Assembly (NCBI GenBank): GCA_024137785.1
Contig: JAHRHZ010000062.1
Location: forward strand, 21,132,771 to 21,196,770
Source of the DNA: Ginglymostoma cirratum
Lineage: Eukaryota
Direction of reading: 5' to 3'
Length of the DNA stretch: 64,000 bases
Made by a program: the position numbers and the translations under genes. The notes under the pieces were generated by a model. The model had not been told where the DNA came from. It did not search any database and saw nothing but the letters and a program-made list of their open reading frames with translations. Shown here in pieces: positions 784 through 56,417 of the stretch (the stretch's first letter is position 1; every line of letters starts with the position of its first letter).

Positions 784-917
784 GACTTCTGAAGAAGGGT
801 CTAGGCCCGAAATGTCAGCTTTCCTGCTCCTCTGATGCTGCTTGGCCTGCTGTGTTCATCCAGCTCTACACCTTGTATATCTCAGATTCTCCAGCATCTG
901 CAGTTCCTACTGTCTCT
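784..917 (+). mobile_element. Short hammerhead-motif element, subfamily A (Penelope-like derived)
   Basis: CTGAAGA(789)-A-GGGTC-TA-GGCCC-GAAA-TGTC, followed by the tail CCTGCTCCTCTGATGCTGCTTGGCCTGCTGTGTTCATCCAGC shared with copies at 27600, 33563 and 47400. Confidence 0.75.
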
Positions 918-1699
918 TAACATTTTACGTTGAGTTTAACTGCATTTACTGCACAAATAGAGCAACCACACATCATTTGATGTATTTCAATGATTTGATT
1001 GACAATGGGATGTCATTTTTGCAAAGCTCACAGCTGTGTGATACAACTCTGTCCGTTTAAGCATGCGTCTGTTCCTTGCATGGGGTATATGTGTCAAGTA
1101 TACGTAATAACAGCACTATTAGTTTCAGTGTTGCAGCAAAGCAAAATCTGGCTGAAAAATCTGGAGAAATGCAAATCTTTCTAATTGCAAATAATTCTAA
1201 ATCAAGTGCCATAGCCAGAAATGTAACAAAACTTCCTTTGCCCCAACAATCTGCATCAACCCCAATCTCCAACGGCCACCCAGCACCAACAAGCAAGGAA
1301 GCCAATAACCAATGTTGTAAATGGGTCTGAAAGTAATAAAACTGAGAAGTGCTATAAATACCTTTTACAATGATGTTATGATGTGGACTTGTGGACAGAA
1401 CAGTTTAGGATCTTGGAGGAGTGAGACCTAACTTCTGGTGCTCTTCATTGTCTCCATAACAAGGACTATCATACCAATGTAACCCATAATTAGTTGCTAA
1501 CATGAATTAAACTACATCTTGTTAACAGCAAGAGACCCTTGTGGTGTGGCCAGGAGTGACTTTCCTATACCACACTAGGCCAAGCAAGCCCTATAGTTTC
1601 CTATGCTTAAGGATGATGATAGCAGTGACCTTCATCATGAGGAATGGCTCATGCAGCACAGTGAGCTGGCATAACCGTGCAACACCAAAGGACAAAAGA

Positions 1700-1915
1700 G
1701 TCAATGTAATTGCCAAAAAAAATGAAGGGAGATAAGGACTGTGTTTTATATGACAGATTGTTGTGAACTGGAATGCATTGCTTAAAAGGACAATAGGCAC
1801 ACACTCAATGATAACTTACAAAAGGACATTGGATAAACACTTCAAAAGGAAAAATGTTGCAGGGCAATGGGAGCCAACATAGGCTTGATGAATCAAATGG
1901 CCTCTTTCCACGCAG
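1700..1915 (+). mobile_element. Degenerate CR1 LINE 3' fragment
   Basis: TGGAATGCATTGC (WNAL) and the ...GAATCAAATGGCCT tail resemble the 3' ends of the better-preserved CR1 copies in this window. Confidence 0.6.
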
Positions 1916-2759
1916 TAAAATCACAGCATTTATCCTACAGACTCAATTAAGCAAAGAAAATGCATTCTTAGTTTTTAATGGAGATGAGCAAGAAATAAAT
2001 AAAGGAACAACATGTATCAAGATATGCACCCATTAAGGGCTTTTATACTATTAACTGAAAACAGACTCTGAAACAAAATGTACAAAAGGTTTTCTTCAGA
2101 AGTGCCCTGATAATGAATGCAGTGATGTTATGAACACAGTGGATAAATCATACACATTGATTTTTATAAATCACTCAGGACACAGGATGCAAAACAACCA
2201 TCAGCTATTTCATATTTCAGACAGCCCAGAGCATTTTTGTGTTTCATCATACTGAGTGATTATTTGCTACCTTTGATACTGCAGCTTGCAATTGAATCAC
2301 AAATAATACAAATGCATTTTGCTGCTGAAATAACTTGTCAGCACTCTGTGACCATGCCATGTATGTCATAAGAAAATCTGTATCCTCTTTTTGTCCTGAG
2401 GAGTTGCTGATTGTTCCTTTCCTTCTTGCTCCCCTGGAAAAAAGTTTACATTTTTCATTATAGATTGTTTACCTTTCATTGGCCACCACAGAATGAATCT
2501 TTAAGGAATTCTGACGATGGCAGGCCCATCATCTGTGCCACACATCACTGATGAGTGAGAATGTGATTTTTTTTTTACACGTGAGCCCCTTGTATTACAT
2601 ATTTAAATATAATCCACAAGTTTAACAGTGAAACCAACGTCTGCGCAGACTGGAACTAGGCAGTCTGGACACTAAATTGGTATATTTTGTGCCCAAAATA
2701 ATCTGATGCAACATATAAAAAATTTAAACCCTTTACTGAGCAATCTAACTTTCCCTTCA

Positions 2760-3930
2760 TCAGAAGGTCAAAAGTGGGGATGTTTGCCAGTGACTGCACA
2801 ATGATTAGCAGCACTTGTGACTCCTCAGATACTGAAGCAGTCCATGTTCAAATGCAACAAGACCTGGACAATATCCAGGCTAGGGCTGACAAGTGGCAAA
2901 TAACATTCACACCACACAAATGCCAGGCAATGACCATCTCCATAAAGGGAAAATCTAACCACCGTCCCCTGACATTCAATTGTGTTACATTCCCTGAATC
3001 CCCCAATATCAACATCCCGGGGGTTACCATTGACCAGAAACTAAACTGGACTCTCCATTTAAGGACAAAGTCTACATGAGCAGTTCAGAGATTAGGAATA
3101 CCATGGTACGCCCCTGACTGCATCAGTGATGCTGAGTGGAGATGGTCAAGAGCATCAAGTTCCTGGGAGTGATGATTACCTACAATCCGTTCTGGTCCAC
3201 ACACATCGATGCAACGGTCAAGAAAGCACAACAATGCCTCTACTTCTTCAGGAGGCTAAGGAAATTCGGCATGTCCGCAGTTACTCTTACCAACTTTTAT
3301 AGATGCACCACAGAAAGCATTCTATCTGGATACATCACAGTGTGGTATGACAACTGCTCTTCCAAAGTCCATGAGAAACTACAGAGAGCCGTGAGCACAG
3401 CCCAGTCCATCACACAAACCAGCATTCCACCCATTGACTCCACGTATACTTCTCGTTGCCTCAGGAAAGCAGCCAACATAATCAAAGATCCTTCCTACCC
3501 CGGTTAAACTCTCTTCCACCCTCTTCCATTGTGCAGAAGACATAAAAGTTTTAATTCACGTACAAACAGATTCAAGAACAGCTTCGTCCCCACTGTTATC
3601 AGACTTTTGAACAGACCTCTCAAATGTTAACTCTGATCTCTCTTTTTACCTTCTCTGTGGCTATAACACTGTATTCTGCACTCTGTTCTGTAACTTGATG
3701 CACTTTGTATGGTATGGTCTGCCTGTATAGCGCGCAAAACAACATTTTTCACTATATGTCAGTACATGTGAAATCAATCAATCAATCAATTATCTCCCTT
3801 CCTGACTCCCCAAAGCCTGGCCTTCATTTACAAAGCACAGGCAGGGGTGTGATGGGATACTTCTACATGCCTGTGCAGCTCCAATAACATTCGAAGCTTG
3901 AAACCATTCAGGACAAAGCAGCCTGCTAGT
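2760..3930 (+). mobile_element. CR1/L2-superclade LINE RT C-terminal fragment, split by a Rex1/Babar insertion
   Basis: ORF 2774-3079 reads FASDCT..MQQDLDNIQARADKWQITFTPHKCQAM..PGVTIDQKLNW (decayed FADD and thumb region). The element resumes at about 3792; the same family occurs in reverse at 35330-35965. Confidence 0.75.
3110..3790 (+). mobile_element. Rex1/Babar-like LINE, 5'-truncated
   Basis: ORF 3136-3507 KFLGVMIT..WSTHIDATVKKAQQCLYFFRRLRKFGMS..LTNFYRCTTESILSGYITVWY; ends in an (AATC)n tail at about 3772-3790. Confidence 0.85.
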
Positions 3931-4659
3931 GTCTACACTATTAGCTGCAAAGCCCTTTGAGATGTCCTGAGGTTCTGAAAGATGCTATCGAAAGTCTAGA
4001 TTGGAAACAGAATGCTTACCAGTCTGCTGTACCAGCAAATATAAAGTTTAGTCTCAGCTACAGCCCTATACACACTTGGGTACCCAGCATTTTGACTCAT
4101 GCCAACATGCACCTGACCACTCTGGCCTTAATGATAGTGTCCCAATAGAGACAGGGTGTACATTCCATATAGGATGAAGAGAGCCTTTGCCAGTACAAGT
4201 TTCCCGAGAAATTAATTTATAGAATCATAAGTCTGCTGTCTCCCCTCATTGCCTTTTCCTCCATATCGCTGTTTCCTCGACCAGCCATGCAACCCACTAC
4301 TCTCACTTCATGTTCCCATCCCCACCATTGTTAACTTTGCCTGATATATCATTGTCTTCTTGCTCTGAACTGTATTTATTTTCTATCCCCTCCACCTCTG
4401 AAACTCCATTTCTTCCTTTAAGTAACCATGAAGGAATTCATTCAGCTAAGCTTTTGATTACCAGTTCCAAAACCTCCTGCTTCGTCTTGGCAATCCATCT
4501 TTTATTTTTGATTAATCCTCCATGAAGCAATTGGAAAATGTTTCCATATTGAAGTTGCTATATTCAATATATATATTCACTTTATCCCTTTACAAGCAAT
4601 TATCTAAGGTTGAACTAGATTGTTCAAAATCTTGATGCCCCATTTGATGTTGCAACGAG

Positions 4660-5200
4660 ATACCAACCACATACCTGCACCATTACTAAGGCCATTTTGT
4701 TCCACCTCTGTAACTTCAGTTGCTTCTGCCCCTTGCTCCTGGAATCCTGATTCATTCCTTTCTTACATATAGTGTCAACTTATCCAAAGCAATAATACAA
4801 AACAAAGATAAAACAACGAACTGTAGATACTGGAGATCTGAAACAAAGACAGAGAGTGCTAGAGAAACTCAGCAGGTATGACAACACCAGTGGAAAGTAA
4901 AAAAACAGAGTTAATATTTTGAGGCCAGTGGCCCTTCCTTAGAACTATTCCAAAGTAATCCTACTTGGTCTCTTGCATTCAATCCTCTATAACATATGAC
5001 CATCAAAAGCCACTTTTGCTCATTTCCTTACCTGCACCAAACCCCATTCAACTCATTGCATCTGCTCACTAACCTAGGTTGTACCTCTATTTTAATACTA
5101 CACCCTTGTTTTCAAATCCCTTCATGGCCTCATCTCTGCCTATCCCTGTAACCACTCTTGCCGTGGAATCCTCTTTAATCCTTCAATGTGTCAATTCTTG
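4660..5200 (+). mobile_element. Degenerate L2 LINE 3' fragment (hosts a hammerhead element)
   Basis: Decayed RLDYSN / HITP / LILVFKSLHGL-type coding sequence (CTTGTTTTCAAATCCCTTCATGGCCTC), similar to 16790-17150. Confidence 0.6.
4794..4948 (-). mobile_element. Short hammerhead-motif element, subfamily B (decayed)
   Basis: Reverse strand GTTCTAAGGAAGGGCCACTGGCCTCAAAATATTAACTCTG; flanked by TCCAAAGCAAT (4783-4793) and TCCAAAGTAAT (4949-4959). Confidence 0.7.
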
Positions 5201-5204
5201 CTCT

Positions 5205-5955
5205 TGATTTGGTTCAATTTGATTTGATTTGATTTATTGTAGTCACGTGTACTTAAGTACTGTGAAAAGCCTTGTTTGTGAGCAGTACAGGCAGATCATA
5301 ACAAACAAGGATGTACAGAGCATAGGGTGCTTAGATAGAGTGAGGCATGTAGGTTACATTGCACAGGAGGTGCGCAAAGCAAGATCAACATTATTTGAAG
5401 TTAGAAAGCCCATTCATCACTCTAATAATGGCAGGGAAGAAGCTGTTTTTGGACCCGTTGGTGCATATGTTCTAGCTTCTGTGTCTTCTGATGGAAGAGG
5501 TTGTGGGAGAGCATTACCAGAGTGGGAGGGGTTGCCTTGTCAATGTTGGCAGCCTTTTATCGGCAACAAGAGATGTAAATGGAATCCATTGACAGGAGGT
5601 TAGCTTCTGTGATGGTCAGAGCTCTGCCCAAACCTTCTGTAGTTTCTTATGGACCTGGGCAGAACAGTTGCTGTACCAGGCCATTATGCACCTGGACAAT
5701 ATGCTTTCTATGGTGCATCTGTAAAAGTTGGTGAGGGTCCTTATGGACATGCCAAATTTCCTAAGCCACCGTAGGAAGAAGAGGCATTGATGTGTCTTCT
5801 TGACTGTCGCATCTACATTGGAGGCCCAGGACAGGTTGTTGGTTATCATCACCCCGAGGAACTTGACTCTCTCAACCCTCTCAATCTTCATTCCGTTGAT
5901 GTAGATGTCGGCGTGTTTTTCTCCTTTCTTCCTGAAGTCAATGATCAGTTCTGTT
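5205..5955 (-). mobile_element. Rex1/Babar-like LINE, 5'-truncated
   Basis: ORF 5616-5891(-) VKFLGVMITNNLSWASNVDATVKK..FFLRWLRKFGMSIRTLTNFYRCTIESILS; (ATTTG)n tail at about 5205-5235. Confidence 0.85.
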
Positions 5956-6879
5956 GAAGCTCACAAGAGTATATTATTTTAAGATATCTTCTGCTTTTAG
6001 TGAAGACATTACTTTCAGCGAAGGTAAGTGAAGAATTCTAGACAGACGACTTCAGAAAATTACATTATGAATTGTAGGACAATGCCAGTTGAATGTAACT
6101 AAATCAGTTTGTGGAAGTGGTTGTGCAGGCACTGACTATCTGTTGGGGTGTTTTAATGTTCACAGCTCTGAATACCAAAGTAGTTGGACACCATGTTATT
6201 AAACTCTTAAAGACCATGGTCTCACCCTCACCTGTCCAGCTTCCCTTTAACTGCATCTATGGTATGGATTTCAACCACTTTCTGGTAGTGAGTTTTCCAG
6301 AAGTCCATCGATCTTTGGGTAACCTTTATGCCTTCTGAATTCCCTACTGAATTTTTTGATGACTATCTTTATTTGATGTCCCCCTAGTTAAGCTCTGGAC
6401 AAGAGGAAGCTTTTTTTTTTGCAGCCACAATCGGTGGAGGTGGGGCCTGGTCACTCCTGCTGTGGGAATGTGGAACACACAGTGGTATTGAGAGGATAAC
6501 CTCATCAAGCCATTGACAATGTTTGATTTTACAAGACCAGCAGGCTATCAACCTTGTTAAAAATCCAGTTGTATGGAATTTTTCATTCCCTACTGCATTT
6601 AGTGGGGATCAGATGGAAGGAGGTTTGGGAGGGTGTTACAGCCATTATAACAGGATGACTCAAGAGAGGTAAAAAGGGCCTGATATTGGGTCAAGTCTGC
6701 ATGAGGCAACAGATTCTGTTGGTGAAATGGCAGCTTTGTTCTCACATTCATTTTTTGACTTTTTCAGTCCTCAACAAAAAATAAAGACAGATTCAGAGAG
6801 CAGGATCGTTTTAAATTTGCTGCCATGACTTCCTATTCATGGCATAACACTTCTGATCCATGGTGTCCCAGCCTATGTT

Positions 6880-7490
6880 CATGATTGGTTACAGAACACC
6901 CCATCCTTTGCAAGTCAGCATTCTTTTTAAACAGATAAGAAACACAGCCCATCAATTCTTTCCATGTATTCCTGGTATCTTTGCAAATCTTCTTTCACAG
7001 TCTCCAATGCCTTAATATCCTTTTTAAAGTATGGCAACCAGAATTGCACACGGTTCTGTAACTGTGATCTATCAAGTTTCAATACAATTTTATTGTCACT
7101 TCCCTATGTTTCAATTCTATCCCATTAGAAATAAAAGCTAGTTTGTTCTTGGAATGCTTTTTTTTAATGCCTTGCTAATTTGTCATGCAACTTTTAGTGA
7201 AAGGTGTATTTGTACTCTGAAGCCTCATTATCACTTACCTCCCCAAGATTTGAACATTCTGAACATTAAATGACTTTCCTATTCATGACATGAAAATGCA
7301 CAAACTCAGATTTATCTGCGTTGAATTCCATTTGCCAATTACGGTATTTTCCCCTTCTGCGAGTTTATTAATGCCATTCTGTAATTTATTGCTGCCCTCC
7401 TCAATCTTGACTCCATTCCCAATTTAGTGTCAAGTGCCAATACAGAAATTGTGTTTTTAGTTCCAAACACCAAGTTGTTAATGTAAATTT
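6880..7490 (-). mobile_element. Highly degenerate CR1 LINE RT fragment
   Basis: TTGAATTCCATTTGCCA is the reverse of W-Q-M-E-F-N, and GGCAACCAGAATTGCAC the reverse of V-Q-F-W; both match the CR1 copies at 48-53 kb. Confidence 0.65.
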
Positions 7491-9559: not shown

Positions 9560-9735
9560 AAACCAAATAAGACCAAGGTCCAGAAAATATTCAACAAGTC
9601 AGTTAGCAGCGTGAAACAGAGTTAACGTCTCAGATGAAACAGAACTTTATTTGTTTCCACAGATACTGTTTGACCTGTGGCAAAGTTTTAGTGTTTTCCA
9701 TTTTTATTTCAGATTTCCATCATCTGCAGTTTTGG
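9560..9735. mobile_element. Decayed inverted pair of subfamily-B hammerhead-element arms
   Basis: Reverse arm ...GAAACAGAGTTAACGTCTCAG is followed by forward arm CCACAGATACTGTTTGACCTG...ATTTCAGATTTCCATCATCTGCAG. Confidence 0.55.
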
Positions 9736-9846: not shown

Positions 9847-10320
9847 GGAGGAAGTGATGGCCTAGCAGTATTGTCGCACGATTAATAATCCAGAAAACCA
9901 GGTAATGTTCTGGGCTGTTCTGAGGAAGGGTTACCGGACCTGAAACGTTAATTCTGATTTCTCTTCACAGATGCTGCCAGACCTGCTGAGCTTTTCCAGC
10001 AATTTTTGTTTTGTTGTCAATGTTCTGGGGGCCTAGGTTTGGCAGATGATGGAATTTGAGTTCAATTAAAATCTAGAATTAAAAATCTAACAATGACTAT
10101 GAAGCCATTGTGACAAAATCCCACCTATTTCACTAATGTCTTTTTAGGACAGGAAATCTGCCATTTTCACCTCTTCTCACCTACATGTGAATCAAGATCC
10201 ATAACAATAAATTTAAATCTTAAAGCCCTCAGAAGCAAGGGCAGTTCAAAGGGAGCATGAGATGGGTGACGAATGTTATCTGTGCTGGCGATGCCTGCAT
10301 TCCATGCAGGAATGAAAAGA
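9847..10320 (+). mobile_element. tRNA-head SINE with a LINE-like 3' tail (interrupted by a hammerhead element)
   Basis: Head GATGGCCTAGCAGTA (A-box-like). The body is shared with 17505-18027, and the tail GATGCCTGCATTCCATG..AATGAAAA resembles the LINE end at about 10800. Confidence 0.65.
9915..10018 (+). mobile_element. Short hammerhead-motif element, subfamily B; best-preserved core, 11-bp TSD
   Basis: GTT-CTGAGGA(9920)-A-GGGT-TACCGG-ACCT-GAAA-CGTT-AAT; the perfect direct repeat AATGTTCTGGG lies at 9904-9914 and 10019-10029. Confidence 0.85.
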
Positions 10321-11769: not shown

Positions 11770-11880
11770 TTGTGACCCTTTTTCAGAAGAACTCTGCAGA
11801 TGCTGCCAGAGCTGCTGAGTTTCTCCAGCAATTTTAGTTTTTATTTCGGATCTCCTGCATGCACCGTTCTTTGTTTTGTC
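11770..11880 (+). mobile_element. Subfamily-B hammerhead element, rearranged
   Basis: An inverted partial core (GTGACCCTTTTTCAGAA) is joined to the forward tail GCAGATGCTGCCAGAGCTGCTGAGTTTCTCCAGCA. Confidence 0.65.
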
Positions 11881-14004: not shown

Positions 14005-14288
14005 AGAGAATCCCTACAGTGGGGAAACAGGCCATTTGGCCCATTGGGTCCAAACTGGCCCTCTGAAGAGCATCTCACCCAGACCCACGCTGCTATCTTT
14101 GTAATCCTACATTTCCCATGGCCCATCCACTTAACCTGCACATCTTTGGACTGTGGAAGGAAACTGGAGCACCCAGAGGAAACCCATGCAAAACAGGGAG
14201 AATGTGGAAACTCCACACAGTCAGTCGTGATTGGAATCGAACCTGGATCCCTGGCACTGGGATAGCATAGCTAACTACTGAGCCACCA
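14005..14288 (-). mobile_element. V-SINE (HE1-like shark SINE)
   Basis: Reverse strand has a tRNA head (GGTGGCTCAGTAGTTAGC...CCAGGTTCGATTCC), a V-domain (GTGTGGAGTTTCCACATTCTCCC...GGGTGCTCCAGTTTCCT) and a CR1-like tail. Confidence 0.85.
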
Positions 14289-15849: not shown

Positions 15850-15975
15850 CAAACAAAGAACCGTGGATGCTGATGATCTGAAACAAAACAGAAATTAAAG
15901 GAGAAGCTCAGCAAGTCTGGTAGCATCAGTGGAGACAGAGGCAGAGTTTCGAGACCAGTGACTCTTATTCAGAAC
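15850..15975 (-). mobile_element. Short hammerhead-motif element, subfamily B (decayed)
   Basis: Reverse strand GTTCTGAATAAGAGTCACTGGTCTCGAAAC plus the conserved tail. Confidence 0.7.
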
Positions 15976-17504: not shown

Positions 17505-18027
17505 GGCAGTGGTGTAGTAACACTACTGCAGTGGTAATCGTAGAAGCTTTGATTATTCATTCTGTGATGTGAGTTAAAATCCTATCATAGCAGCTGGGGA
17601 ATTTATAAATAAATAAACCTGAAATAATCAGTAATGATGTCTATTTGATTACTATAATAAAGGCAAAACACTGCAGATGCAGGAAATCTAAAAGAAGCAC
17701 AAATAGTGCTGAAGAATAGTCATGCTGTACTCAAAATGTTAGCTCTGTTTTTCTCTCTCTACAAATGCTGCCAGACCTCCTGAGTTTTTCCAGCATTCTC
17801 TCTATTTCGCTGCTGGAAAAAACCATCCAGTTCACTAATATTCTTTAGCGAAATAATTCAGCATGATTTACCTGATTTGACCTATATGTGACTCCAAACT
17901 CATAGTAATGTCATTGACTCTAAGACACTCAGTTGTGAAGTAGGTAGTTCATCACTATCTTCTCCAGAGTGAATAAGAGCGAGCAATGAATGCTGGCTGT
18001 ACCAGTACCTCCACACCAGAAAGCAAA
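17505..18027 (+). mobile_element. tRNA-head SINE (same family as 9847); contains a hammerhead element and abuts the LTR element at its tail
   Basis: GGCAGTGGTGTAGTAA head; CCAGTTCACTAAT and CCTATATGTGACTCCA body; GAATGCTGGC..CCACACC tail. Confidence 0.6.
17660..17808 (+). mobile_element. Subfamily-B hammerhead element with an inverted 5' piece
   Basis: Reverse tail piece (CTGCAGATGCAGGAAATCT), then CTGAAGA-A-TAGT-CATGCTGT-ACTC-AAAA-TGTT-AGCTCTG and the forward tail. Confidence 0.7.
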
Positions 18028-23677: not shown

Positions 23678-23688
23678 AAGAAGGGAGG
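23678..23688 (+). other. Polypurine tract
   Basis: AAGAAGGGAGG directly before the TG of the 3' LTR. Confidence 0.85.
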
Positions 23689-26330: not shown

Positions 26331-27599
26331 AAGAATAGCATTGCAGTTTAAATACTGTGTAAAGCATCACTGAATACATCACCCGTTATTTCTATGGTTA
26401 CCAATCCAGAGTGTCTTGCCCTTCTGTAGTTTTTGTAAGATATAAACTGTAAGTTCTCCTGCTGCCGAATATGACTTGCCTACACACCATCAAAGTGACT
26501 TTAAATGAATGAGATTTGCAGAGACCTTTCATGATGGGTTCTGAGGGAGAGAGGTCACTAGATAATTTCAATCAATTACACGTGTCTCACAAATCAGCCA
26601 TGGTTCTGTAGATAGTACTCTTCGTTCTGTAAGATAAAATTATGGGTTCAGTGTAACTCCAGGGATTTGTGAGCAAATCTAGGTTACTACGTTATACAAT
26701 ATTGAGCACATTTATCACTCTAACTCCAAGTATAAATTTCGATCCCCATCTCTCCATTTTAATTCTAAGAATAATCCATTTATTTTTCCAGGTGCATCTT
26801 CCAGCCAGCTGAACTGAATGTTCTTGACTAAGTGTCAGTTGAGTTGAGTTTTTTTGGAGGGTTTTTCACTGCAAAGTCTAGTGACATTTTCCACTCCATC
26901 TTATCAAATTCACCTCATTAACTACCTGCACTATCAGTTTGGCAGCCCTCCTCTCCAATCCAGCCGCATCTTACCATCTTAGAATAACTCACCACAACCA
27001 AGATATCCCTGAATTGACTGGCATCCCTGGCTCCAGGACCATCTTCAAAAGTCTGTTGTGAACCCAGATAAGCACTGTCTGTCTGGAGATGCCCTGCATG
27101 GTTTCTGACATTCGCCTCAGACATGGCAAGCAAAGCAAGTTTGGCGCTGTGTTTTGCAAGTAGAGACCTGTAGAGACCTGCATAGTCCTGTTAGATGGCG
27201 TGAAGCAAGGGTAGGACATCGTCTTTCCCTAGGACCAGCATAGGAGGCTACAACACCCGACAATGCAGTCTAGTCCAAGTCTGCCAGCCGGGTTAATACA
27301 ATCTCAGCTGTACAGCTCACATTCTATCTTTGCTACTATACCCACTTCCCAAAGATTGCTATACAATTCCCACTATTGCCTGCATCATCTTCCCTCACTC
27401 GTTATCACCGAATCCAAACACCTAACATCACTAACTGTGCATGCCCTCTGCACTGCCTGTACACTTGTTTGGGACACCTTACCATCTGCACCAAAAGTGA
27501 CAGCAGTGCCACCTACTTTCACTTTCCTTTATAGCTGCCTCTTTCTCAATTGCAGTAGAAAACAGCTCACAACAGGGCAGAAAGGGTCAATCGATGTCA

Positions 27600-27765
27600 A
27601 TAGGTGTAAGGCTGGAAAAGCACAGCAGGTCAGACAGCATCCAAGGAGCAGGAAAGTCAACACTTTGGGCCAAAACCCTTCATCAGTCTTGACGTTCCTG
27701 CTTCTCTGATGCTGTATGTCCTGCTGTGCTTTTCCAACCTCACGTCTGCAGTCCTTATTACCTCT
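27600..27765 (-). mobile_element. Palindromic subfamily-A hammerhead element
   Basis: Arms 27611-27660 and 27689-27737 are inverted repeats. The reverse-strand core between them reads CTGATGA-A-GGGTT-TT-GGCCC-AAAGTGTT. Confidence 0.75.
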
Positions 27766-28719
27766 GAGTCAATATAGGTGGTGGTCTACCTGACTTTCAG
27801 CTTCTCACCTCTTCTGAGGAGAAGATCCTAATTTTGACCACCCTGAATGACTGAAAGATTCAGTCCAAGCCCCTGGACTGGCGTGTGAGGCTGCCCTTGA
27901 CTTACTGTGCCAGGACTCCTTGACCAAAATCTATCTTCCTTGAATTGTCTAGGGACTGCTGACATCATGGTAAGTTTCTTGCCTTTGTGTCTACATTACA
28001 CAGCAATAATTTGAGCCTGGTGTCTTTGACTGAGGGGGCAAAGTGTAAAAAGACAAAGGAAGGCAATGAAGTTGTGAACACCTGAGCAGGCATAGAGTGA
28101 GTGAGCATTCTGAGAGCAAGCTGTATGTATTCTCGTAATTGCTGGGGCAGCCTGAGGTGCAGCATTGAATTGCAGATGTTATACTGACAGAGACAGAAGA
28201 CATGCCATGAGGGTTCATAGAGGCTGGCACACACTGATGCCAAAGTTCTTGGGCGTGGGTTGCATGTGGGTGGTGCCCTGCGATGTTTATGTCTAGTGTC
28301 CAACATGGTGGTCTAAGTTGCCAGGTACCTGCTCTGACTTCCATGTCATGAATTCTCAACATCTAGCATCTTTGGCAACTTTGAAAAGGTTGGATAATAC
28401 TGAAGCACATTAATAAGGCATTTAACAAGGTAGAATCCTTCTTAACTAGCAACTCAGTACTGCCTAGAGAGTAGCTTATCACTCAGCAGATGCAGTAGGT
28501 TGGCTCCTAACATGGGTGTGACTCTGCCACAAATCTTGCCATTGCCCACAACATCAGGCCCTTACAAGAATCTATCCTTGATGTGAGCTATTTCAGATCC
28601 ATTTCCTATTGTCCTGGATGCATCGATTGGCCCATTTGACATCAATGGAAGAGGAGATCAGTTGGCATTTGGGTCATAGATTCTTCATTTGACCCCGAGA
28701 GTTTGACAACATTGTGAGG

Positions 28720-33120: not shown

Positions 33121-33562
33121 ACTGACAGCTAACATAAAGAGGAATCCAGAAGTCTTCTATCAGCACAAAAATAATGAAAGGGTGGTAAGGGGAGAGGTGG
33201 GACCAATTAGTGAGCAATAAGGGGATTTACACTTTAAGTTAGAGGCAAAATAAATACTTTGTATTTGTCTTTAATAAGAAAGAAGATGTAGCCAGAATCA
33301 TTGTGAAAAATGTGTTAGCTGAGAGAATGGACCTGCTGAAATTAAAAGAGGAGCTTTTAGAAAAGCTGGCCATGGTTAAAGTTGATAAACCATTGGATCT
33401 AGGTCAGATGAATTTAAGGACACTCAGAGCAGAAAGGATGGAAATTGTAGAGGTATTGGCCATTGTCTTCAAATCCTGTTAAATCCTGGCACCTGAAAAC
33501 TGGAGAATTGCAAATGTCACTTGATCAAAAAGGGGCGTAAGAAAATCAAGCAGCTACAGATT

Positions 33563-33689
33563 TTCTGAAGAAGGGTCCTGACCTGAAATGTCAACTTTCC
33601 TGCTCCTCTGATGCTGCCTGGACTGCTGTGTTCGTCCAGCTCCACACTGTGTTGTGGCTGATTCTAGCATCTGAGTTTTTGCTAAGTCT
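33563..33689 (+). mobile_element. Short hammerhead-motif element, subfamily A, 12-bp TSD
   Basis: CTGAAGA-A-GGGTC-CT-GACCT-GAAA-TGTC; flanks CAGCTACAGATT (33551-33562) and CAGCCACAGATT (33690-33701). Confidence 0.82.
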
Positions 33690-36460: not shown

Positions 36461-38519
36461 TTTAATTATGTAGCATCTTAAATGTCCCAAATTGTGACAC
36501 TTCCAGCAAATGACTGTGAAATGTAATCATGTTTTTATGTGAGTTAGATAAACTTGATATTTTGTTCACATTAATTGTTCCACAATGTATCAGACTTTGA
36601 TGGTTTTAGGCAGCAGAACAGAGAATATTTATAAGAACAAGATCTAGAATTCCTCCTCTGTCCATTTCTTTCAACGTCAGAAGACAACACTGGTGGGAAA
36701 CCAAAGTGTAAAAAGAACCATTTGTTGAGAACTCAAAGATATCTATCAACTGCGTTGCTGAATCATTAGTTAATCAAGAATGATCTATGGTTAGCCATCT
36801 AATACCTCAAGCATTCTAAAGGCTTTTAACCTGGGTAACTTTTATTCTTCTCGTTGATACTAGACACTATCTCCTTTTTGAAACTTATTGCCTGTTTAGC
36901 AGAAGTATTTGATAGTAGATTTTATTTTTTTTTCCTCAGGGTTCATAGGCAATAAAATTCTCATTGTTTCACCCAAGAAAGCCTTGTGATTGTCTTCTTA
37001 GTTTTGACTTGAACTATGTTCTAATTAAGTGTGAAAGTTGCTTGATAAAAATATATAAAGTATTTGTTGTAACCGCTGGGAGGGAATTAAAAAGAGGTGG
37101 GGCCAATTAGCCTTTCTCCCTGGCCATAGCACATTGAAAATTCATCAAAATTGTTATTGAGATTGTGAACAGCTTCAACCTCAGACTGTTCCCAGGGAGG
37201 GGGATAGAGTTTGTACTGGGGACAAAGACAATGGCTTCAGTCTTGCCAATAGTTTAATGAAAGAAATTTCTGCTTTTCCAGTCAATGGTGTGATAATTTG
37301 GAGACAGCTAGTGGAGGGTTTGAGACAGGTGGTGGTGAGATAAAGGTGGGAGGCATCAGTGTATGTGATGGCAGCATGCAGGTGAGAAAAAGGAGGGAGC
37401 ATAAGTTATATCCGGTTGAGGTAACAGTGTGAGAAGAGAAGCCATTGATCCAAGAATCTGTTGCAGATTAAACAGATTTCCAAAAGCAAGTATGGAGAAT
37501 TGGATGCTTCAAACTTGGGTCTTAGTTGGATGAGTGCTATCAGTGCTCAGTCGTAATGGGGGGGAATTAAAAGGCAAAGGTGAATCCTCTAATCAATGAA
37601 ATTTTAGGCCTTGAATTTGTTCAGTCCTATGCTCCTCTCTAATGGAGGGTATCACACTATGCATTAAGTCTATCTTGATTTAAAAAATCCATTGCTTTCT
37701 GATTTTGTTCATGCAAGTTAATTGAAAACATTGATTGCAAGTGTCAGAATTAAATGACATTCATTTATTATAGATTTGTTACCAAATTAGATATTTAAAA
37801 ATTACATTGTCTGGTCTATTGACCTTAAATGGTCAAATAATTAATCTTTGATTAGATTTTTAATGAAGAAAGACTTCCTTTGATTTTTGGACATCCTTAA
37901 TTGACTTTAGCACTGCAGTTACACTGACTCCTCCTTGAACTTCTGCAGTCTGTTTGGATTAAGTAAACTCACAGTGCTTTAAGGGAGGATAATGATGCTG
38001 CAACTGTCAAAGAACATGCCATTTATTTCCAAGTCAGAATGGTGTGTGACTTCAGGAAAGATTTTCACGGCATCAGGTGAATTCTAGAGCCATATTAAAA
38101 TGGTGGTGTGACCCCATTCAGATAATTTCACCACCGTTTCCAGTGCCATAAATTTTTGCTAACCTGTGATCAGGATCGCAGGAAGTTAACCCATTCCCTG
38201 AATTTCTGACTTGGACATCACCATTGCAGGTTCAGCATCGCAAAGCCCTCTGCAATTTTGGTGGAGTTGGAGCAAGCCTGTCTGTGATTCGTGGCCCATA
38301 ATTGTTCAGAAGAGTCATAAGCCAAAGTCCACCTTTGGGAACTTTTTAAAATGTATATCTTACGGAATTGATCTACCCACACTCTTTCCATGGCCACATG
38401 CTATCAGAATGTCATCTATGTTTCACTTCTGTATTCCCAATTAGCATTGTACTAATTGTTTTTTCTTCTGTGTGGACCTCCAAGTTGTGCCCTTCCTTCT
38501 ATACCTTCCATCTTCATCA

Positions 38520-38684
38520 TCAGAAGTCACATGACACTGAGTTATAGGTTTAAGTGACTTCACCTGATGAGGGAACAGTGCTCCAAAAGCTTGTGATTTT
38601 AATTGAACCTGTTGGGCTATAACCTGGTGTCATGTGACTTCAGACTTTGTCCACCCCAATCCAACACCGACACCTCCACATCAT
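38520..38684 (+). mobile_element. Short hammerhead-motif element, subfamily C, with inverted arms
   Basis: CAC-CTGATGA(38564)-G-GGAAC-AGT-GCTCC-AAAA-GCTT-GTG. GAAGTCACATGACAC/GTGTCATGTGACTTC form an inverted repeat, and there is a degenerate flanking duplication CTTCCATCTTCATCA / CTTCCATTGTCAGCA. Confidence 0.75.
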
Positions 38685-38689
38685 AGCTT

Positions 38690-41304: not shown

Positions 41305-41647
41305 AGAATCATAGCAGTCCTACCGTGTGGTAGCAGGCCATCTGTTTGGCCCATCAAGTGCACACCAACTCTCTGAAGAGCATTCCAACCCAGACCCACC
41401 CCACTACTCCATCCCTCTAACCCTGCATTTCCCATGGCTAATCCATCTAGTCTGCACATCTCTGGACACTATAGGCAATCTAGCAGGACCAATCCACATC
41501 ACCTGTGCTGGACTGTGGAAGGAAACCCACACAGAGACGGTGAAAGTATGCAAACTTAACACAGACAGTCGCCCAAGGGTGGAATTGAACCCGGTGTTTG
41601 GTGCTGTGAGGCAGAAGTGCTATCCACTGAGCCACCATGCTGCCCAC
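41305..41647 (-). mobile_element. V-SINE (HE1-like)
   Basis: Reverse strand GGGCAGCATGGTGGCTCAGTGGATAGCAC...CCGGGTTCAATTCC head; homologous to 14005-14288. Confidence 0.85.
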
Positions 41648-47399: not shown

Positions 47400-47490
47400 A
47401 GATTAACAAGCATGGGGCTGGATGAACACAGCAGGTCAAGCAGCATCATAGGAGCAGGAAAACCTGACGTTTCGGGCCTAAACCCCAGAT
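47400..47490 (-). mobile_element. Subfamily-A hammerhead element, truncated before CTGANGA
   Basis: Reverse strand GGGTTTAGGCCC-GAAA-CGTC-AGG plus the subfamily-A tail. Confidence 0.75.
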
Positions 47491-50020: not shown

Positions 50021-50562
50021 GTGAGACAGGGTGCCTCTCACTATTTGACAAAGATAAAGTGATTTATATCCAAAATGCATTATCCAAGATGAATTAGAAA
50101 TTCCCAGGCTACTTTTTTAAAGCTGCTGTCTACGAATTTTGGGTACAGATAGGTAGGGCTAAAGACAGTTCTAATAGCCCCCTAAATGTGGTTGCAGAGT
50201 ATCAAAAATAAGCAAGACTCCATTTCTAATCAGTCTATTGGAAACCCAACAGGCAATACTGAATGAATGTCATCAATTGTCTTACCCAGTCTCACCCTGT
50301 CCACACTTCAATCTATGTTATAAAGAGAAAAACAACTAGAAAAGCTAAGGACTAGAAAAGAGTCAATTTCAACTGACATCTCCCACGCACCCCCATCTCC
50401 CCACAAATGATGATTGTATCCGTTGCAGGACAATGTGAGAAAATGTGAAATTGACCATTGACAATTACTCCATTAAAAATTAGGAAAAAAGTTAAAAGGA
50501 ACAAGAACTCAAGAGTTGTTAGTAATGGAGGTAATAGGACCCAAAAAGAAGGTGCAAAAACT

Positions 50563-53473
50563 GGCATAAGGGCACTTTATCTGAATGCTTGGAGCATTCG
50601 AAACAAGGTGGATGAGTTGACGGTGCAAATCATGGCAAATGGGTATGAGTTAGTGGCCATTACACAGACATGGTTACAGGATGGTCATGACTGGGAGTTA
50701 AATATCCAGGGGTATCAAACTGTTCAGAAGGACAGACAGGAAGGTAAGGGAGGTGGTGTTGCTTTGATTTTTAAGGATGACATCAGGATGGTACTGAGAG
50801 ATGATATAGGTTCTACTGAACAAAACGTTGAATCCATTTGGGTGGAAATTAGGAATAACAGGGAGAAGAAGTCACTGATAGGTGTGATCTATAGACCACC
50901 AAATAATGACATTGTGGTGGGGCGGGCAATAAACATAGAAATAGCTAATGCATGTAAAAATGGTTCAGCAATTATCATGGGGGATTTTAATCTACATATC
51001 AATTGGTCAAACCAGGTTGGTCATGGCAGCCTTGAGGAGGGGTTCATAGAATGCATCAGCGATAATTTTCTTGAACAATATGTAATGGAACCTATGCGGG
51101 AACAAGCTATCCTAGATCTAGTCCTGTGTAATGAGACAGGAATAATTAATGATCTCATAGTTAGGGATCCTCTCGGAAGGAGCGATCACAGTATGGTCGA
51201 ATTTAAAATACAGATGGAGCATGAGAAGGTTAAATCCAGTACCTATGTCCTGTGCTTAAACAAAGGAGACCATGAAGGAATGAGGAAGGAGTTAGCTAAG
51301 GTAGAATGGGAGCAAAAACTTTTTGGTGAGTCAATTGAGGAACAGTGGAGGATTTTCAAAACAATTTTTCACAGCGCTCAGCAGAAGTATATTCCAGTGA
51401 TAAGGAAGAACTGCAGGAAAAGAGACAGCCAGCCATGGATGTCTAAGGAAATAAAGGAAAGTATCAGATTGAAAAAAAAACGTACAAAAAAGCAAAGATT
51501 AGTGGGAAACTAGTAGACTGGGAAATCTTTAAAGGCCAACAGAAAACCACAAAAAAAGTTATAAAGAAAAGTAAGATAGATTATAAGAGTAAACTAGCTC
51601 AGGATATAAAAACAGGCATCAAAAGTTTCTATAAATATGTAAATCATAAAAGAGTGGCGAAGGTAAACATTGGTCCTTTAGAGGATGAGAAGGCCAATTT
51701 AATAACTGGGAATGAGGAAATAGCCGCGACATTAAACAGTCATTTTGTGTCGGTCTTCACAGTGGAAGACACAAATAACATGCCGAAAACTAATGGCAAG
51801 AAGGTTCTAACAGGTGAGGACCTAGAAACTATCATTATCACTAAGGAGGCAGTGCTGGGCAAGCTAATGGGGCTAAAGGTAGACAAGTCTCCTGGCCCTG
51901 ATGAAATGCATCCCAGGGTACTAAAAGAGGTGATGGGGGAAATAGCAAATGCACTAGTAATTATTTACCAAAATTCACTGGACTCTGGGGTGGTTCCCGC
52001 AGATTGGAAAACAGCCAATGTGACACCACTGTTTAAAAAAGGAAGTAGACAAAAAGCCGATAACTATAGGCCAGTTAGCTTAGCTTCTGTAGTGGAGAAA
52101 ATGCTTGAATCTATCATTAAGGAAGAAATAGCAAGACATCTGGATATAAATTGTCCCATTGGGAACACCCAGCATGGGTTCATGAAGGTTAGGTCATGTT
52201 TAACTAATTTGGTGTAATTCTTTGAGGACATTAGTTACATGGTGGACAATGGAGACCTGTGGATGTGGTGTATCTGGATTTCCAGAAGGCATTTGACAAG
52301 GTGCCACACCAAAGGCTGCTACTTAAGATAAAGTTGCATGGTATTACAGGTAATGTGTTGGCATGGATAGGGGATTGGTTGACCAACAGAAAGCAAAGTG
52401 CAGGGGTAAATGGGTGTTTTTCTGGTTGACGGTCAGTGGCTAGTGGTGTGCCTCAGGTGTCAGTGTTCGACCTCAATTGTTTACAATCGACATAGATGAC
52501 TTGGAGTTGGGGACTAAGTGTGGTGTGTCAAAATTTGCAGATGACACTAAGGTGAATGGTAGAGCAAATTGTGCAGAAGACACTGAAAGTTTGCAGAGGG
52601 ATATAGATAGTAAAAGTAAATGGGCAAAAGTCTGGTAGATGGAGTACAATGTTGATAAGTGTGAGATCATCCATTTTGGTAGGAATAACAGCAAAATGGA
52701 CTATGTTTTAAATGGTAAAAAAATTGCAGCACGCAGCTATGCAAAGGGACTTGGGTGTCCTTGTGCATGAATCGCTGAAGGTGGGATTGCAGGTGCAGCA
52801 GGTGATTAAAAAGGCAAATAGAATTTTGTCTGCCATTGCTCGAGGGATGGAGTTTAAAAACAGGGAGGCTATGCTGCAACTGTATAGGGTCTTGGTGAGG
52901 CCACACCTGGAGTACTGTGTGCAGTTTTGGTCTCCTTACTTGAGAAGGGATATACTTGCACTGGAGGGGGTGCAGAGGAGATTCACCCAGTTGATTCCAG
53001 AGTTGAAAGGGTTGGATTATGAGGAGACACTGAGTAGACTGGGATTATACTCATTGGATTCAGAAGAATGAGGGGAGATCTTATAGAAACATATAAGATT
53101 ATGAAGGGAATAGATAAAGTAGAGGCAGGGAGGTTGTTTCCGCTAGCAGGTGAAACTAGGACTAGAGGGCATTGCCTCAAAATAAAGGGAAGCAGATGTA
53201 GGACTGAGGTCAGGAGGAACTTCTTCACCCAAAGGGTTGTGAATCTGTGGAATTCCCTGCCCAGTGAAGTGGTTAAAGCTACCTCGCTGAATGTTTTTAA
53301 GGCAAGGCTAGATAAATTTTTGAACAGTAAAGGAATAAGGGTTATGGTGAGTGGGCGGGTAAGTAGAGCTGAGTCTCAAAGATCAGCCATGATCTTATTA
53401 AATGGCGGGGCAGGCTCGAGGAGCCAGATGGCCTACTCCCGCTTCTTGTTCTTATGCTCTTATGTTCTTATGT
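50563..53473 (+). mobile_element. CR1 LINE, near-complete ORF2 (APE endonuclease and RT) with stops and frameshifts
   Basis: YLNAWSIRNK..GGGV..YRPP..MGDFN..SDH (ORF 50458), KSPGPD..NYRPVSL (51654), KFADDTK (about 52531), RPHLEYCVQFWSP (52712+); (TTCTTATG)n tail at 53449-53473. Confidence 0.95.
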
Positions 53474-54215
53474 TGTTATTTTGCAGGGGGAAAATGTAAA
53501 ATTGTACTATCTAAATGCTGAGAGTTTGCAGAGATCTGAGTTGCAGAGCAAGTTGGCTGTCCTTGTGTATGAATCACAAAAGGTTAGCATTCAGGTACAG
53601 CAAGTAGTTAGGAAAACTAAAAGAATGTTAATTTTTATCATGAGAATAATTGAATAGAAGAGTAGGGAGGTTATACTTCAGTTACTCAGGGCTCTGGTGA
53701 ACTGCATCTGGAGCAGATTAGTTGCCTTATTTAAGAAATTAATTGGAGACAGTTCAAAGAAGGTTTGCTAGACTAATACATGACAAAAGATAGTTGTGTC
53801 ATGAGGAAAAGTTGGACAGGTTAGTCTTGTGCCTGCTGGAAATTAGAAATATAAGGAGTGAATTGCTTGAAACATACAAGATCTTAGGGGGTCTTGACAG
53901 GGTAGATATAATGTTTCTTATTGTGGGAGAATCTAGAAATCGGGATCACTGCTCAAAAATCAGGGATCTCCCGTTTAAAACAGAGATTAGATTAATGGGT
54001 TTGTCTCTGAGTCTTTGAAAATCCCTTCCCGAAAATGTGGTGGAAGCAGAATCCTTGAATATTTTTTGAGGCAGAGGTAGAAAGACTGTGGTGAAGCAAG
54101 AAGTTGATGAGGTAGACAGAAATGTAGATTTGAGCTTACAGCCAAATGAGCCCAAGACCTCATTGCAGCGCAAAGCAGTCTGGAGGGACTTAAAGGCCTA
54201 TTCCTGCTCATTGTT
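53474..54215 (+). mobile_element. Older CR1 RT 3' portion
   Basis: LVYESQKVSIQVQQVVRK; EEKLDRL..LLETYKILGGLDRVD..ESRNRDH. Confidence 0.8.
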
Positions 54216-56039
54216 CGTTTGTTGCTATCATCGTACAGGAACAACACACACAAACACAAGAATTTATATAGGCCATTCCTCATCTTGACTCTGTTCTGCC
54301 ATTGAATTTCATCATGCCTAATTGCTCACAAATTCCAAAAATCTGTTCAAGGTTAGTTGTGGGGAAATTCTTGCTGGTATGAGGTGCAGATCCGAATCAT
54401 CACATTATTTGATCTTGCCTGGTGCAAAGTGATTGGGATTTTTCTTTTTCCTCTCTGTCCTCCCTCTGTTTTTATTCCATGCCTCACCAATTGTGATCCC
54501 GATAGGGAAGGTCCAGCATTAACATGGAACATTCCTCGCCTAAACTTCACAAAATGGAAACAACTTTGCAATTTCCAAGCCAGTAGTTACTTCAATGGAA
54601 CAGGTCAATTGGGCTTGGTGAGTATTTCCACAGTGTTGTCTGCTGAACATGTCCAACTGCCTAATAATTCCGCTTGTTGAAATAGATTGAAAGCAAACTG
54701 CAATCTATCGTATTGTTACTGCCAGTAACTTAATGGGGCAGCTCGGGGAGTTCATTATGTCCTTCTGTGGCTTGGTTTTGTTTTATTAAAACATCCATCA
54801 CTAGTTTTCTGCCCAAATGTTAGCACCGTAAGTTGCATGATGTGTGCAGAGTTCCATCTGGTTGTTGTTGGAGGAGCCTCCTGTTGCTTTGGCCAAGGTA
54901 GATTCTAAATTATTCATATACGGCCATGCATTAAGAGATTAGTTGAATGATGACAACAAAAAAAAAGGTTCGCCTCATTTCAAAGTTCGGAGTTAGTTGA
55001 GATCCGAAGCAGTGTACGCTTGGCCGTGATGAATAACACCACTTTTTTAGTCGAACTCGTTTTATTTTGTTTTTTTTTCTTAAGTGTGCAATGATTTGCT
55101 TTGCGGCCCCGTGTGTTTTGAAAACGTGTCTATTCGGGGAAAGTATCTTGCGCGGTTGTAGGAGCCTTGTGATGGGACGTTGATCCTGACACTGAATTGA
55201 ATTTCAGGCGTGAAGAGGCGAACAAGCGGACTGTCTAAAAAAACTTGAAGTTTCATTTCTTGAAAGTGAATTGCCCTGACCGAGCAGAGGGGGAGAAACG
55301 GGGGACTTCTGCAACTCGAAATGTTGCTAGAAGCAATCTGCCTATTAGCCGGCACAACGCTACCAGCCCGATCTTTGGAACAAAGCTCTTCTGGTAAGGT
55401 AGCTAAACAACTACTTCGCAGAGTAACATTTTACTTGATGTGTAATACAATGATCAACTTTCGACACATTTTGATCCGGTCGCCAAAGTTGTGCTTTCTG
55501 TTAGATTGACAGGTACCTCACATTGGGGTAATTTAAATAGAGCCAATGCCATTTTAACAAGGGAAGGAGGCAAAGCGCTAGCGTTCCAGGTTGAAGCAAC
55601 ACACACATGCCCCCCGCGCCCCTCTGAAACGGGATTCCAATTTTTTTTTAAAGTTCCTCCTGGCAGTTTCACTCTTTTTCAGGTTGTTCTAACTAAACTC
55701 GCAGTATCATTGCTTGGTTCACGATTGAGTGCTTCTTAAACGTCTATTTCAATTAGAAAATAATAGGGTCATTACGTCAAACATGACTGTTGCTGGGCAA
55801 ACATTTCTCTTTGCGAGGAGGTCGGATTCAGTCAGTAGAAGAGGTTTCGTTTCATTTCATACTGGCTGCAATTTCTCCACGATTATGTGCATTCGCACCG
55901 AAAAGAAATCTAATTGATAATAATTTAAAATTCCATCTCCTCGCTGACTTTAGAGAGCCACCTCGCTCCCGTACAATTTAGTGACATGCTGCGGGTCGCT
56001 GTCCAAAGATCTAGTGCTGAACAACAACGAGCCTGACCC

Positions 56040-56165
56040 AAAAGCAAAGATACTGCAGGCGTTAGAAATTCGAAAGATAAACAGGAGGTTGAGAATCCTC
56101 ATCGGTTCAGGCAGGATGAGTGGAGAAAACGAATAGAGTTAACGTTTTCGGGTTAGTCAGAAACA
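56040..56165 (-). mobile_element. Subfamily-B hammerhead element (diverged)
   Basis: ATACTGCAGGCGTTAGAAAT...GAGTTAACGTTTTCGGG is the reverse of CCCGAAAACGTTAACTC. Confidence 0.55.
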
Positions 56166-56242
56166 GTTCTGAAGTGCTTATTCTGAGAGTAGCACTGAGA
56201 GGAACAGGAATCCAGACACGGCGCGTCTCCATTTCTCTCGTA

Positions 56243-56417
56243 AAAACCGAAAGAATTGCGGATGCCGTAAATCAGGAACAAGAACAGAAGTTTGTTGGAA
56301 AAGCTCAGCAGGTCTAGCAGCATCTATGAGGAAAAATCAGGGTTAACGTCCCGGGTCCGGTCACCCTTCCTCGGAAAAGTTCTGCTGCGCTTTTCCAGCA
56401 ACTTCTGTATTTGTTCA
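56243..56417 (-). mobile_element. Subfamily-B hammerhead element with an inverted arm
   Basis: Reverse core TTCCGAGGA-A-GGGT-GACCGG-ACCC-GGGA-CGTT-AAC; GAACAAGAACAGAAGTTTGTTGGAAAAGC is inverted as GCTTTTCCAGCAACTTCTGTATTTGTTC. Confidence 0.75.

Follow-up and report, generated by a model that had tools for sequence, protein, structure and literature searches.

What are the short repeats dispersed through this stretch of the nurse shark genome, and what gives their copies a uniform size of 100-140 nt? The stretch (hereafter the window, 64,000 nucleotides of Ginglymostoma cirratum contig JAHRHZ010000062.1) had been annotated as carrying 13 such repeats, which were taken for a non-coding family of retrozyme-like mini-elements built on a minimal hammerhead ribozyme and derived from Penelope-like elements (PLEs). 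We consider it probable that they are truncated, hammerhead-bearing ends of autonomous Neptune-type PLEs, i.e. of their pseudo-LTR/ORF junction, with mostly broken cores, and that their size likely results from internal priming and run-off at a likely transcription start upstream of the uncleaved ribozyme.

Each of the 13 named sites is a true repeat. Five profiles built from genomic copies (A1, A2, B, C and D, in the three groups A1/A2, B/D and C) detected 17 arms in the window at 15 bits or more and gave no match in a reversed-sequence control of 387,401 nt. The proposed density of roughly one per 5 kb agrees with 13 sites per 63.6 kb, and a census of a genome sample of 626,790 nt returned 212 arms at 171 insertion sites (130 solo arms and 41 inverted pairs), one per 3.7 kb. 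The division into three subfamilies by stem-II base had to be redrawn; GGG/CCC spans both A and B. A tRNA scan gave no hit.

Table 1. Repeat arms and head-to-head pairs in the window, with core, tail and target duplication.
Feature	Positions	Strand	Core and tail	Duplication and remarks
Family A1 arm	785..915	+	C3 at 789, both boxes present, palindrome decayed to ATGT; long tail	5' end not judgeable because it adjoins the assembly gap 384-783
Family D (B-like) arm	4811..4946	-	core broken (G5, G12, palindrome); long tail	candidate, 11 nt, 1 mismatch
Old family D arm	9644..9735	+	without core; long tail	
Family B arm	9915..10015	+	C3 at 9920, both boxes and ACGT present, C11.1 to T; short tail	exact, 11 nt, 9904-9914 / 10019-10029
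Family B arm	11796..11872	+	without core; long tail	
Family B arm	15855..15975	-	GAG/CTC stem base, core broken (G8 changed, stem III deleted); long tail	
Family D head-to-head pair	17658..17808		minus arm 17716-17658: without core, long tail; plus arm 17705-17808: G12 to A, short tail	minus arm 17 bits
Family A head-to-head pair	27592..27770		minus arm 27687-27592: core broken; plus arm 27695-27770: without core	
Family A2 arm	33560..33685	+	C3 at 33565, both boxes present, C11.1 and C15.2 to T; long tail	candidate, 12 nt, 1 mismatch
Family C head-to-head pair	38519..38685		short minus fragment: short tail; plus arm 38558-38685: C3 at 38564, AGCT palindrome, G12 to A, long tail	candidate, 11 nt
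Family A1 arm	47403..47485	-	begins at stem II, without CUGAUGA; short tail	
Old family D arm	56042..56150	-	begins at GAAA; long tail	
Family B head-to-head pair	56241..56415		minus arm 56376-56241: core broken, long tail; plus arm 56379-56415: without core, short tail	

A degenerate inverted arm, seen by eye only, lies at about 9560-9630 near the old family D arm at 9644..9735.

The predicted hammerhead motif is real at the family level. The CUGANGA and GAAA boxes, the UH triplet, the G10.1-C11.1 pair and a palindromic stem III are all present, and at this level the earlier description of the stem-II bases GGG/CCC, GAG/CTC and GGA/TCC, of the stem-I pairs and of the ACGT/AGCT palindrome holds, with the features of the minimal type-I hammerhead of PLEs. 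The claim that most copies carry the core did not survive: only three of the 17 window arms keep both boxes and the UH triplet, each with at least one CpG-type change and none perfect, eight lack the core region and six have a broken core. Minimal type-I features were found in 32 of 212 census arms and were lacking in 14 of the 17 window arms; the core is broken or absent in 169 of the 212 census arms. For the stem covariation that the initial annotation had proposed to examine, we used a count of anchored pairs in place of the automatic RNAalifold alignment. Between families, both sides change in eight of the 11 anchored pairs and three pairs never vary, one A2 stem-I pair being broken, and these compensatory changes represent few independent events because most come from family C. 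Automatic RNAalifold on seven copies, with the odd-length stem II of family C misaligned, gave four pairs, one of them changed two-sidedly. Energy folding of the repeat does not yield the active hammerhead fold, and the likewise proposed scan with Rfam hammerhead models detected none of the 13 window sites. A weak HH10 match at 25411-25529 (E 0.19) lies away from the sites and looks like chance.

CpG sites are changed to the same extent within and outside the core (29% each), and G12 has been lost at the rate usual for a CpG. Outside CpG, the core is better conserved than the remaining sites even in the less biased of two tests (15/508 versus 169/2916 changed, p=0.007), for which several masters, alignment noise or a degree of selection may be responsible; the cruder comparison (4.5% versus 11.3%) is biased because subfamily-variable columns were kept in.

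Judged by sequence, the repeat is the pseudo-LTR/ORF junction and the "tail" of autonomous Neptune-type PLEs and not a separate non-coding retrozyme family. At 19 of 20 loci found via the endonuclease alone, a same-strand repeat lies 440-840 nt past the point where the GIY-YIG match begins. Two ORFs, of 714 and 650 aa, that have reverse transcriptase (RT) and GIY-YIG matches end in the repeat, with an inverted 5' copy and a flanking duplication. In the parent ORFs, GIY-YIG scores above the cut-off and RVT_1 (E about 1e-5) under the Pfam cut-off, with the YIDD motif present; a PDB sequence search with P0001 gave no matches. The linker between RT and endonuclease (EN) reads CNRRKCYTC (Cx4CxxC type) in P0001 and P0002, with similar motifs in the A2 and C parents, and the CX2-5CxxC pattern was not found in the B and D copies checked. 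The Neptune label rests on this linker and on the vertebrate distribution given in the portion covered of a 2026 preprint (10.64898/2026.07.22.740005), Nematis being the alternative. At loci picked by the repeat alone, ORF remnants lie upstream in 4/19 (A2), 2/29 (C) and 1/24 (D) cases; for family B they were found at locus L018 and at 25/25 loci picked with its upstream part. Furthermore, the repeat runs in frame into the ORF N-terminus at 17 of 20 junction loci (these include the query copy itself and two that overlap), and the pseudo-LTR arrangement, with the repeat after the ORF and before or in its start, was found in family A. The likely start codon, about 19 nt past the hammerhead cut site, thus falls within the repeat, as do the first ~25 codons of the parent ORF, and the label non-coding had to be dropped. 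Upstream, 32 of 212 census arms reach 46 to >1000 nt into the parent element.

A search of the window with eight PLE proteins (tblastn, no match at E<=0.01) confirmed that no PLE ORF is visible there. Mobilisation in trans does not follow from this absence, because truncated cis products would be without an ORF as well. It is improbable, in our estimate, that the repeats are distinct non-autonomous retrozyme-like mini-elements with their own short masters, moved in trans by PLE proteins. Such masters would fit the sharp common 5' boundary and the fixed 3' ends, and also the skew of short copies toward certain subfamilies (of 39 short copies in family A, 30 have another short copy as nearest neighbour, with a best identity of 0.924 versus 0.891 to long ones). 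Few census arms reach at least 46 nt upstream in A2 (2/26), C (2/11) and D (0/35), one tandem array of a deleted derivative (three units, 537 nt) exists elsewhere in the genome, and animal retrozymes are derived from PLE ends according to the covered part of the same preprint. However, short and long copies cannot be told apart by any alignment column, the TATA-like box upstream is absent from short copies, the repeat sequence is the head of the parent ORF, every profile corresponds to the end of a PLE that has an ORF, 5' ends are spread within the repeat and to >1 kb upstream, and most cores are broken or absent. What remains of the retrozyme-like claim is the subfamily skew and the single array. 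Retrozymes are defined, in the portions covered of PMC7229834 and of the preprint, as tandem 150-450 bp non-coding repeats giving circular RNA; they share the type-I hammerhead and the PLE relationship with the shark repeats, whereas the window copies are solo or head-to-head, of the minimal type and with an ORF head. No tandem array or head-to-tail unit of 150-450 bp was found at any window site, nor a non-coding lineage apart from ORF-bearing elements, and where census arms of the same strand lie within 1 kb of each other (13 neighbours), their ends differ.

The anatomy of the insertions points in the same direction as the ORF link. Census copies have two fixed 3' ends, a long and a short tail, 30-37 nt apart, and 34 of the 37 classifiable inverted pairs combine one long with one short tail (18.5 expected). 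Target duplications of at least 9 nt occur in 56 of 95 pairs, versus one in the shifted control. The 41 inverted pairs with target duplications might recall MITEs with terminal inverted repeats, a reading to which we give next to no credence: 130 of 171 insertions are solo, the arms end at different points, junctions differ among copies, and duplications range from 9 to 20 nt rather than having one fixed length. The link of the arms to RT-EN elements refutes a DNA-transposon identity, in line with the initial annotation.

The 5' ends, counted relative to C3 of the ribozyme, cluster at its upstream edge. Of the 212 census arms, 101 have their 5' end at -10..+2 (7.8 per nt) and four at -45..-11 (0.11 per nt); the pile-up holds in solo arms too (62/130), and the remaining ends are spread continuously inside the repeat and upstream. 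It forms a slope across several bases without a sharp step, many ends lying at -1..-3. TATA-like boxes begin at -35 (A), -33 (B) and -37 (C), and the pile-up lies about 28-31 nt past them at a pyrimidine-rich, initiator-like position. The match to the parent falls to background beyond -4 (A), -5 (B) and -7 (C), family C retaining 20/30 at -7 and 18/30 at -6 and reaching background at -8; a run-length test of C reaching further upstream than A and B was not significant (p=0.20). This geometry is not universal among PLEs, because the mapped promoter of D. virilis Penelope is TATA-less and internal, as far as PMC2377424 was covered.

This pile-up suggests run-off cDNA from uncleaved transcripts. 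If the short RNAs were instead ribozyme cleavage products that are reverse transcribed, as in a retrozyme-like cycle, 5' ends would be due at the cut site (+28..+32). Young A1 copies do have intact cores (26/64 perfect), but no excess of starts was found there (8/83 versus 7.6 expected from 6,000 simulated truncations) and the copies retain sequence upstream of the cut, so that this disfavoured reading is very improbable. A PLE origin with a different cause of the 5' edge, namely a structural stop or template switch at the edge of stem I of the folded hammerhead on a longer RNA, seems to us rather unlikely. In A and B the 5' strand of stem I lies right at the edge (-4), and the sloping edge would fit as well. 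A cap-derived extra G, suggested by matches to a query starting with that G, is not enriched in unselected copies (C 5/14, p=0.15; A 1/9; B and D together 3/16), which also favours a stop. In family C, however, stem I ends at -4 and copies match the parent to -7, following the TATA-like box, and A2 has a weak stem I (2.3-1.3 unpaired in 37/38), yet 20 of its 26 census arms start at the common edge. Moreover, by this point an RT travelling along the RNA from 3' to 5' would already have passed stems II and I. Part of the extra G in family C is accounted for by the partner arm at inverted junctions.

A mechanism for the preferred reading, PLE ends shortened by internal priming and run-off, can be proposed by analogy with Poseidon of Anolis, whose protein nicks and extends both strands and primes at two internal sites of its unprocessed RNA (PMC11167929). 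The shark RT would likewise prime at two sites inside its own unprocessed, uncleaved RNA, and the protein would nick and extend both target strands. By motif geometry the pile-up would mark the mRNA start, and run-off at this likely start just upstream of the ribozyme would give the 100-140 nt copies. The arms of inverted insertions may be two cDNAs primed at two nicks, one per internal site, and long copies may stem from read-through transcripts with the tail downstream of the whole ORF. The ribozyme would be at work in the parent RNA, with the help of dimer formation or of protein, and not in the stumps. Tentatively, and with slightly more doubt than confidence, we further propose that about half of the roughly one million stumps are strong-stop-like run-off cDNAs, primed ~95 or 125-130 nt inside uncleaved mRNA and ended by fall-off at the transcription start, a dimer priming once per site on opposite strands to give the one-long-one-short fold-back.

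Many of these features have precedents. The motif resembles the minimal PLE hammerheads of PMC4209133 (CUGANGA, one extra base, G10.1-C11.1, palindromic 15.2/16.2, no helix III), and the parts of that survey covered report many consensus families per genome, as found here, and thousands of single dispersed motifs, for which a relation to truncated PLEs is called probable. No shark is named in those parts, which include one supplement file, and the extrapolated shark numbers lie far above the 4,000-9,000 given there for coelacanth and Xenopus, counting methods being different. As in canonical EN+ PLEs such as Neptune and Nematis, there is an RT with C-terminal GIY-YIG and a CX2-5CxxC linker, together with heavy 5' truncation, partial tandems, an inverted 5' copy, target duplications and a 30-40 nt tail, often at one end only; these descriptions, as covered (PMC8557442, PMC3846280), contain neither a 5' pile-up at the upstream edge of the ribozyme nor a count for the one-long-one-short rule. 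Poseidon PAc of Anolis carolinensis also has its hammerhead at the pLTR-ORF junction and two RT start sites that set the tail; the unprocessed template and the nicking and extension of both strands, established biochemically in PAc, are proposed for the shark. The PAc ORF starts in stem II, whereas the shark elements are of the zinc-finger-linker type with the likely start past the cut (PMC11167929). The retrozyme survey in the preprint includes, in its covered part, one chondrichthyan.

Penelope hammerheads, truncated dispersed copies and a shark Penelope expansion are already published. In the literature outside subscription journals we found no account of these shark subfamilies or of the 5' pile-up; the subfamilies may be catalogued, because Repbase/Dfam, subscription journals and some supplements lie outside this search. 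The clustering of 5' ends at the ribozyme edge is the less ordinary feature, and the rest is known Penelope anatomy. In scale, a rough extrapolation gives ~1.2 million insertions and ~220,000 perfect hammerhead cores in the genome. The copy ends provide in vivo statistics that agree with a single in vitro study on the two start sites, the use of both strands and the uncleaved template, they bear on PLE transposition and on the role of the ribozyme, and they give a precise prediction for the mRNA start. If the run-off reading is true, the dead copies would be a fossil map of the PLE promoter, the RT start sites and the state of the ribozyme.

The thirteen sites named in the initial annotation, on contig C62 (JAHRHZ010000062.1) of the 4.36-Gb assembly, stood as repeats: profiles trained on genomic copies found 17 arms, i.e. 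single repeat copies, of at least 15 bits at all 13 sites and none in a reversed control of 387,401 bases. With blastn, 12 of the 13 matched another named site or their own inverted copy, and site 56040 matched only itself; four sites hold head-to-head pairs. The three subfamilies first proposed became five profiles, arranged as A1/A2, B/D and C. The 5' end of the first copy directly adjoins a run of N.

Repeats and other features of the window
Feature	Window position	Remark
A1 and A2 sites	785, 27592-27770, 33560, 47403	profile assignment
B and D sites	4811, 9644, 9915, 11796, 15855, 17658-17808, 56042, 56241-56415	profile assignment
C site	38519-38685	profile assignment
N run	384-783	400 bases, directly before the first copy
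Rfam Hammerhead_HH10 match	25411-25529	E 0.19, 28 of 75 bits, no intact core; likely chance
Direct repeat, ~570 nt	18018-18587 and 23679-24242	84-92% identity, 5.66 kb apart
LINE-like RT and endonuclease ORF fragments	48462-53496	both strands; by motifs presumably CR1/L2-like
Inverted repeat pair, 247 nt	3139-3385 / 5636-5882	76% identity; probably two LINE 3' ends
SINE-like repeat pair	14035-14151 and 41345-41467	taken to resemble shark HE1

The repeats very probably belong to Penelope-like elements (PLEs). When the GIY-YIG family alone served as query, the genome gave 96 matches, and 19 of the 20 fetched loci had, 440-840 nt past the match start, a family A repeat in the same orientation. 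Two loci encode ORFs, 714 and 650 aa long, in which a Cx4CxxC linker lies between YIDD and YIGET and which have the repeat at their end; these loci also show a 5' copy in inverted orientation and a duplication in the flanks. Such a linker is described as a mark of Neptune and Nematis (PMC8557442), and a 2026 preprint lists only Neptune and Poseidon for vertebrates (10.64898/2026.07.22.740005). The closest named proteins to a PLE ORF of this genome are those of Rhincodon (90% identity), Stegostoma (86%) and Chiloscyllium (74%). In 17 of 20 loci (one being the query copy and two overlapping), the long tail, one of two alternative 3' ends, reads in frame into the ORF N-terminus, with the likely start Met ~47 nt past the core reference position C3; the label "non-coding" is thus not upheld. 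Because of this in-frame run and the ORFs ending in the repeat, we read the repeat as the pseudo-LTR/ORF junction of a PLE, which is likewise where the hammerhead of the Anolis carolinensis Poseidon element PAc sits (PMC11167929). PLE ORF remnants lie upstream in 4/19 A2 loci picked by repeat, 2/29 C loci and 1/24 D loci; for B, one was found at locus L018 and then in 25/25 loci picked with the L018 upstream part, a partly circular search. The window itself gave no PLE ORF remnant, as had been stated. At six loci with ORF-head copies (L292, L296, L297, L299, L302, L304) a second same-strand arm follows 0.3-1.3 kb further on, probably through internal deletions or partial tandems.

At the family level, the motif (CUGANGA, one extra base, G10.1-C11.1, GAAA, and an ACGU or AGCU palindrome) fits the minimal PLE hammerhead as outlined by Cervera and De la Pena (PMC4209133). 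The cleavage triplet is GUC in A, GUU in B/D and CUU in C, and stem I is weak in A2. Anchored pair counts supported stem covariation in part: 8 of 11 pairs changed on both sides between families and three were invariant, but one stem-I pair is broken in A2, and the changes represent few independent events because family C supplies most. That most copies carry the pattern did not hold, since only three of the 17 window arms keep both boxes, none is perfect, six are broken and eight lack the core; the Rfam hammerhead scan proposed as a check detected none of the 13 sites. We also took a census of 626,790 non-N bases, made up of the window and of 10-kb stretches, 20 of them neighbouring and 80 scattered. 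Among its 212 arms of at least 20 bits, 32 have a perfect core, 11 retain the boxes, 94 have a broken core and 75 have none. Individual copies are mostly dead. G12 is altered in 39 of the 135 census arms having a letter there (36 to A), and CpG sites changed equally within and outside the core (29% each). However, A13/A14/A15.1/U16.1 changed less often than other A/T sites (15/508 vs 169/2916, p=0.007), and this better-kept core speaks against pure neutrality.

Each family has two 3' end clusters (95 and 126 nt from C3 in A1, ~91 and 123 in A2, 95 and 132 in B). Among 41 head-to-head census pairs, 37 were classable, and 34 of these join one long and one short tail (18.5 expected, p=6e-8); across all loci it is 75 of 84. 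Of 95 pairs, 56 lie between duplications of 9-20 nt, compared to 1 in the shifted control.

Almost half of the census arms (101/212) begin at -10 to +2 of C3 (7.8 per base), only four at -45 to -11 (0.11 per base), while 75 begin inside the repeat and 32 continue into parent sequence for 46 to more than 1000 nt. This pile-up is kept in scattered stretches (66/132) and solo arms (62/130). In parent copies a TATA-like box begins at -35 (A), -33 (B) or -37 (C), and short copies no longer match the parent above background beyond -4 (A), -5 (B/D) or -7 (C), i.e. 28-31 nt past that box, whereas the end of stem I lies at -4 in every family. These positions point to the edge as the mRNA start, which is suggestive only because a run-length test for tracking of the TATA-like box was not significant (p=0.20), the edge slopes, a cap-derived G was looked for there and not found, and the mapped D. 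virilis Penelope promoter is described as TATA-less (PMC2377424). G12 also exceeds expectation as a start (8 unselected arms vs 2.0, one of 46 positions looked at), possibly by chance or stem II microhomology.

By analogy to PAc, the element protein would most likely bind the head of its own transcript, nick both target strands and prime at two internal sites. On a transcript starting in the pseudo-LTR the cDNA would run off after 100-140 nt, a step to which we give an even chance, whereas read-through RNA would yield long, variably truncated copies, and two end-joined cDNAs a fold-back with one long and one short arm. The common 5' edge could also come from a stop of the RT at the folded ribozyme, an explanation which we consider rather improbable. 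We disfavour the copies being MITEs, and also their being ribozyme cleavage products, as 5' ends at the cut site show no excess (8/83 vs 7.6 simulated), which fits the finding that unprocessed RNA serves as template in PAc (PMC11167929).

Some support exists for a separate non-autonomous family, given that 30 of 39 short family A copies have another short copy as their nearest neighbour. Moreover, a three-unit tandem array at L289:1441-2616 (contig C12, near 80.01 Mb; 537-nt period, 95% identity), whose units 2 and 3 begin at the upstream edge of the ribozyme and include the first ~400 nt past the tail, looks like a deleted, retrozyme-like derivative of family A, and therefore such offshoots exist. 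However, no alignment position shows a fixed difference between short and long copies, and no window copy is such an offshoot, so the retrozyme-like label does not apply to the window repeats.

Earlier work already describes hammerheads in PLEs together with truncated, dispersed copies (PMC4209133), inverted copies and tails confined to one end (PMC8557442, PMC3846280), and a PLE expansion in whale shark (bioRxiv 10.1101/443036; PMC8455134). In the literature searched, which excluded Repbase, Dfam and some supplements, we found no description of these shark subfamilies or the 5' pile-up. Extrapolation gives roughly 1.2 million insertions in the genome, from a sample that is partly neighbouring DNA. 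The repeats are real and of a kind already known, and the addition to published PLE anatomy is the count of long/short tail pairing.
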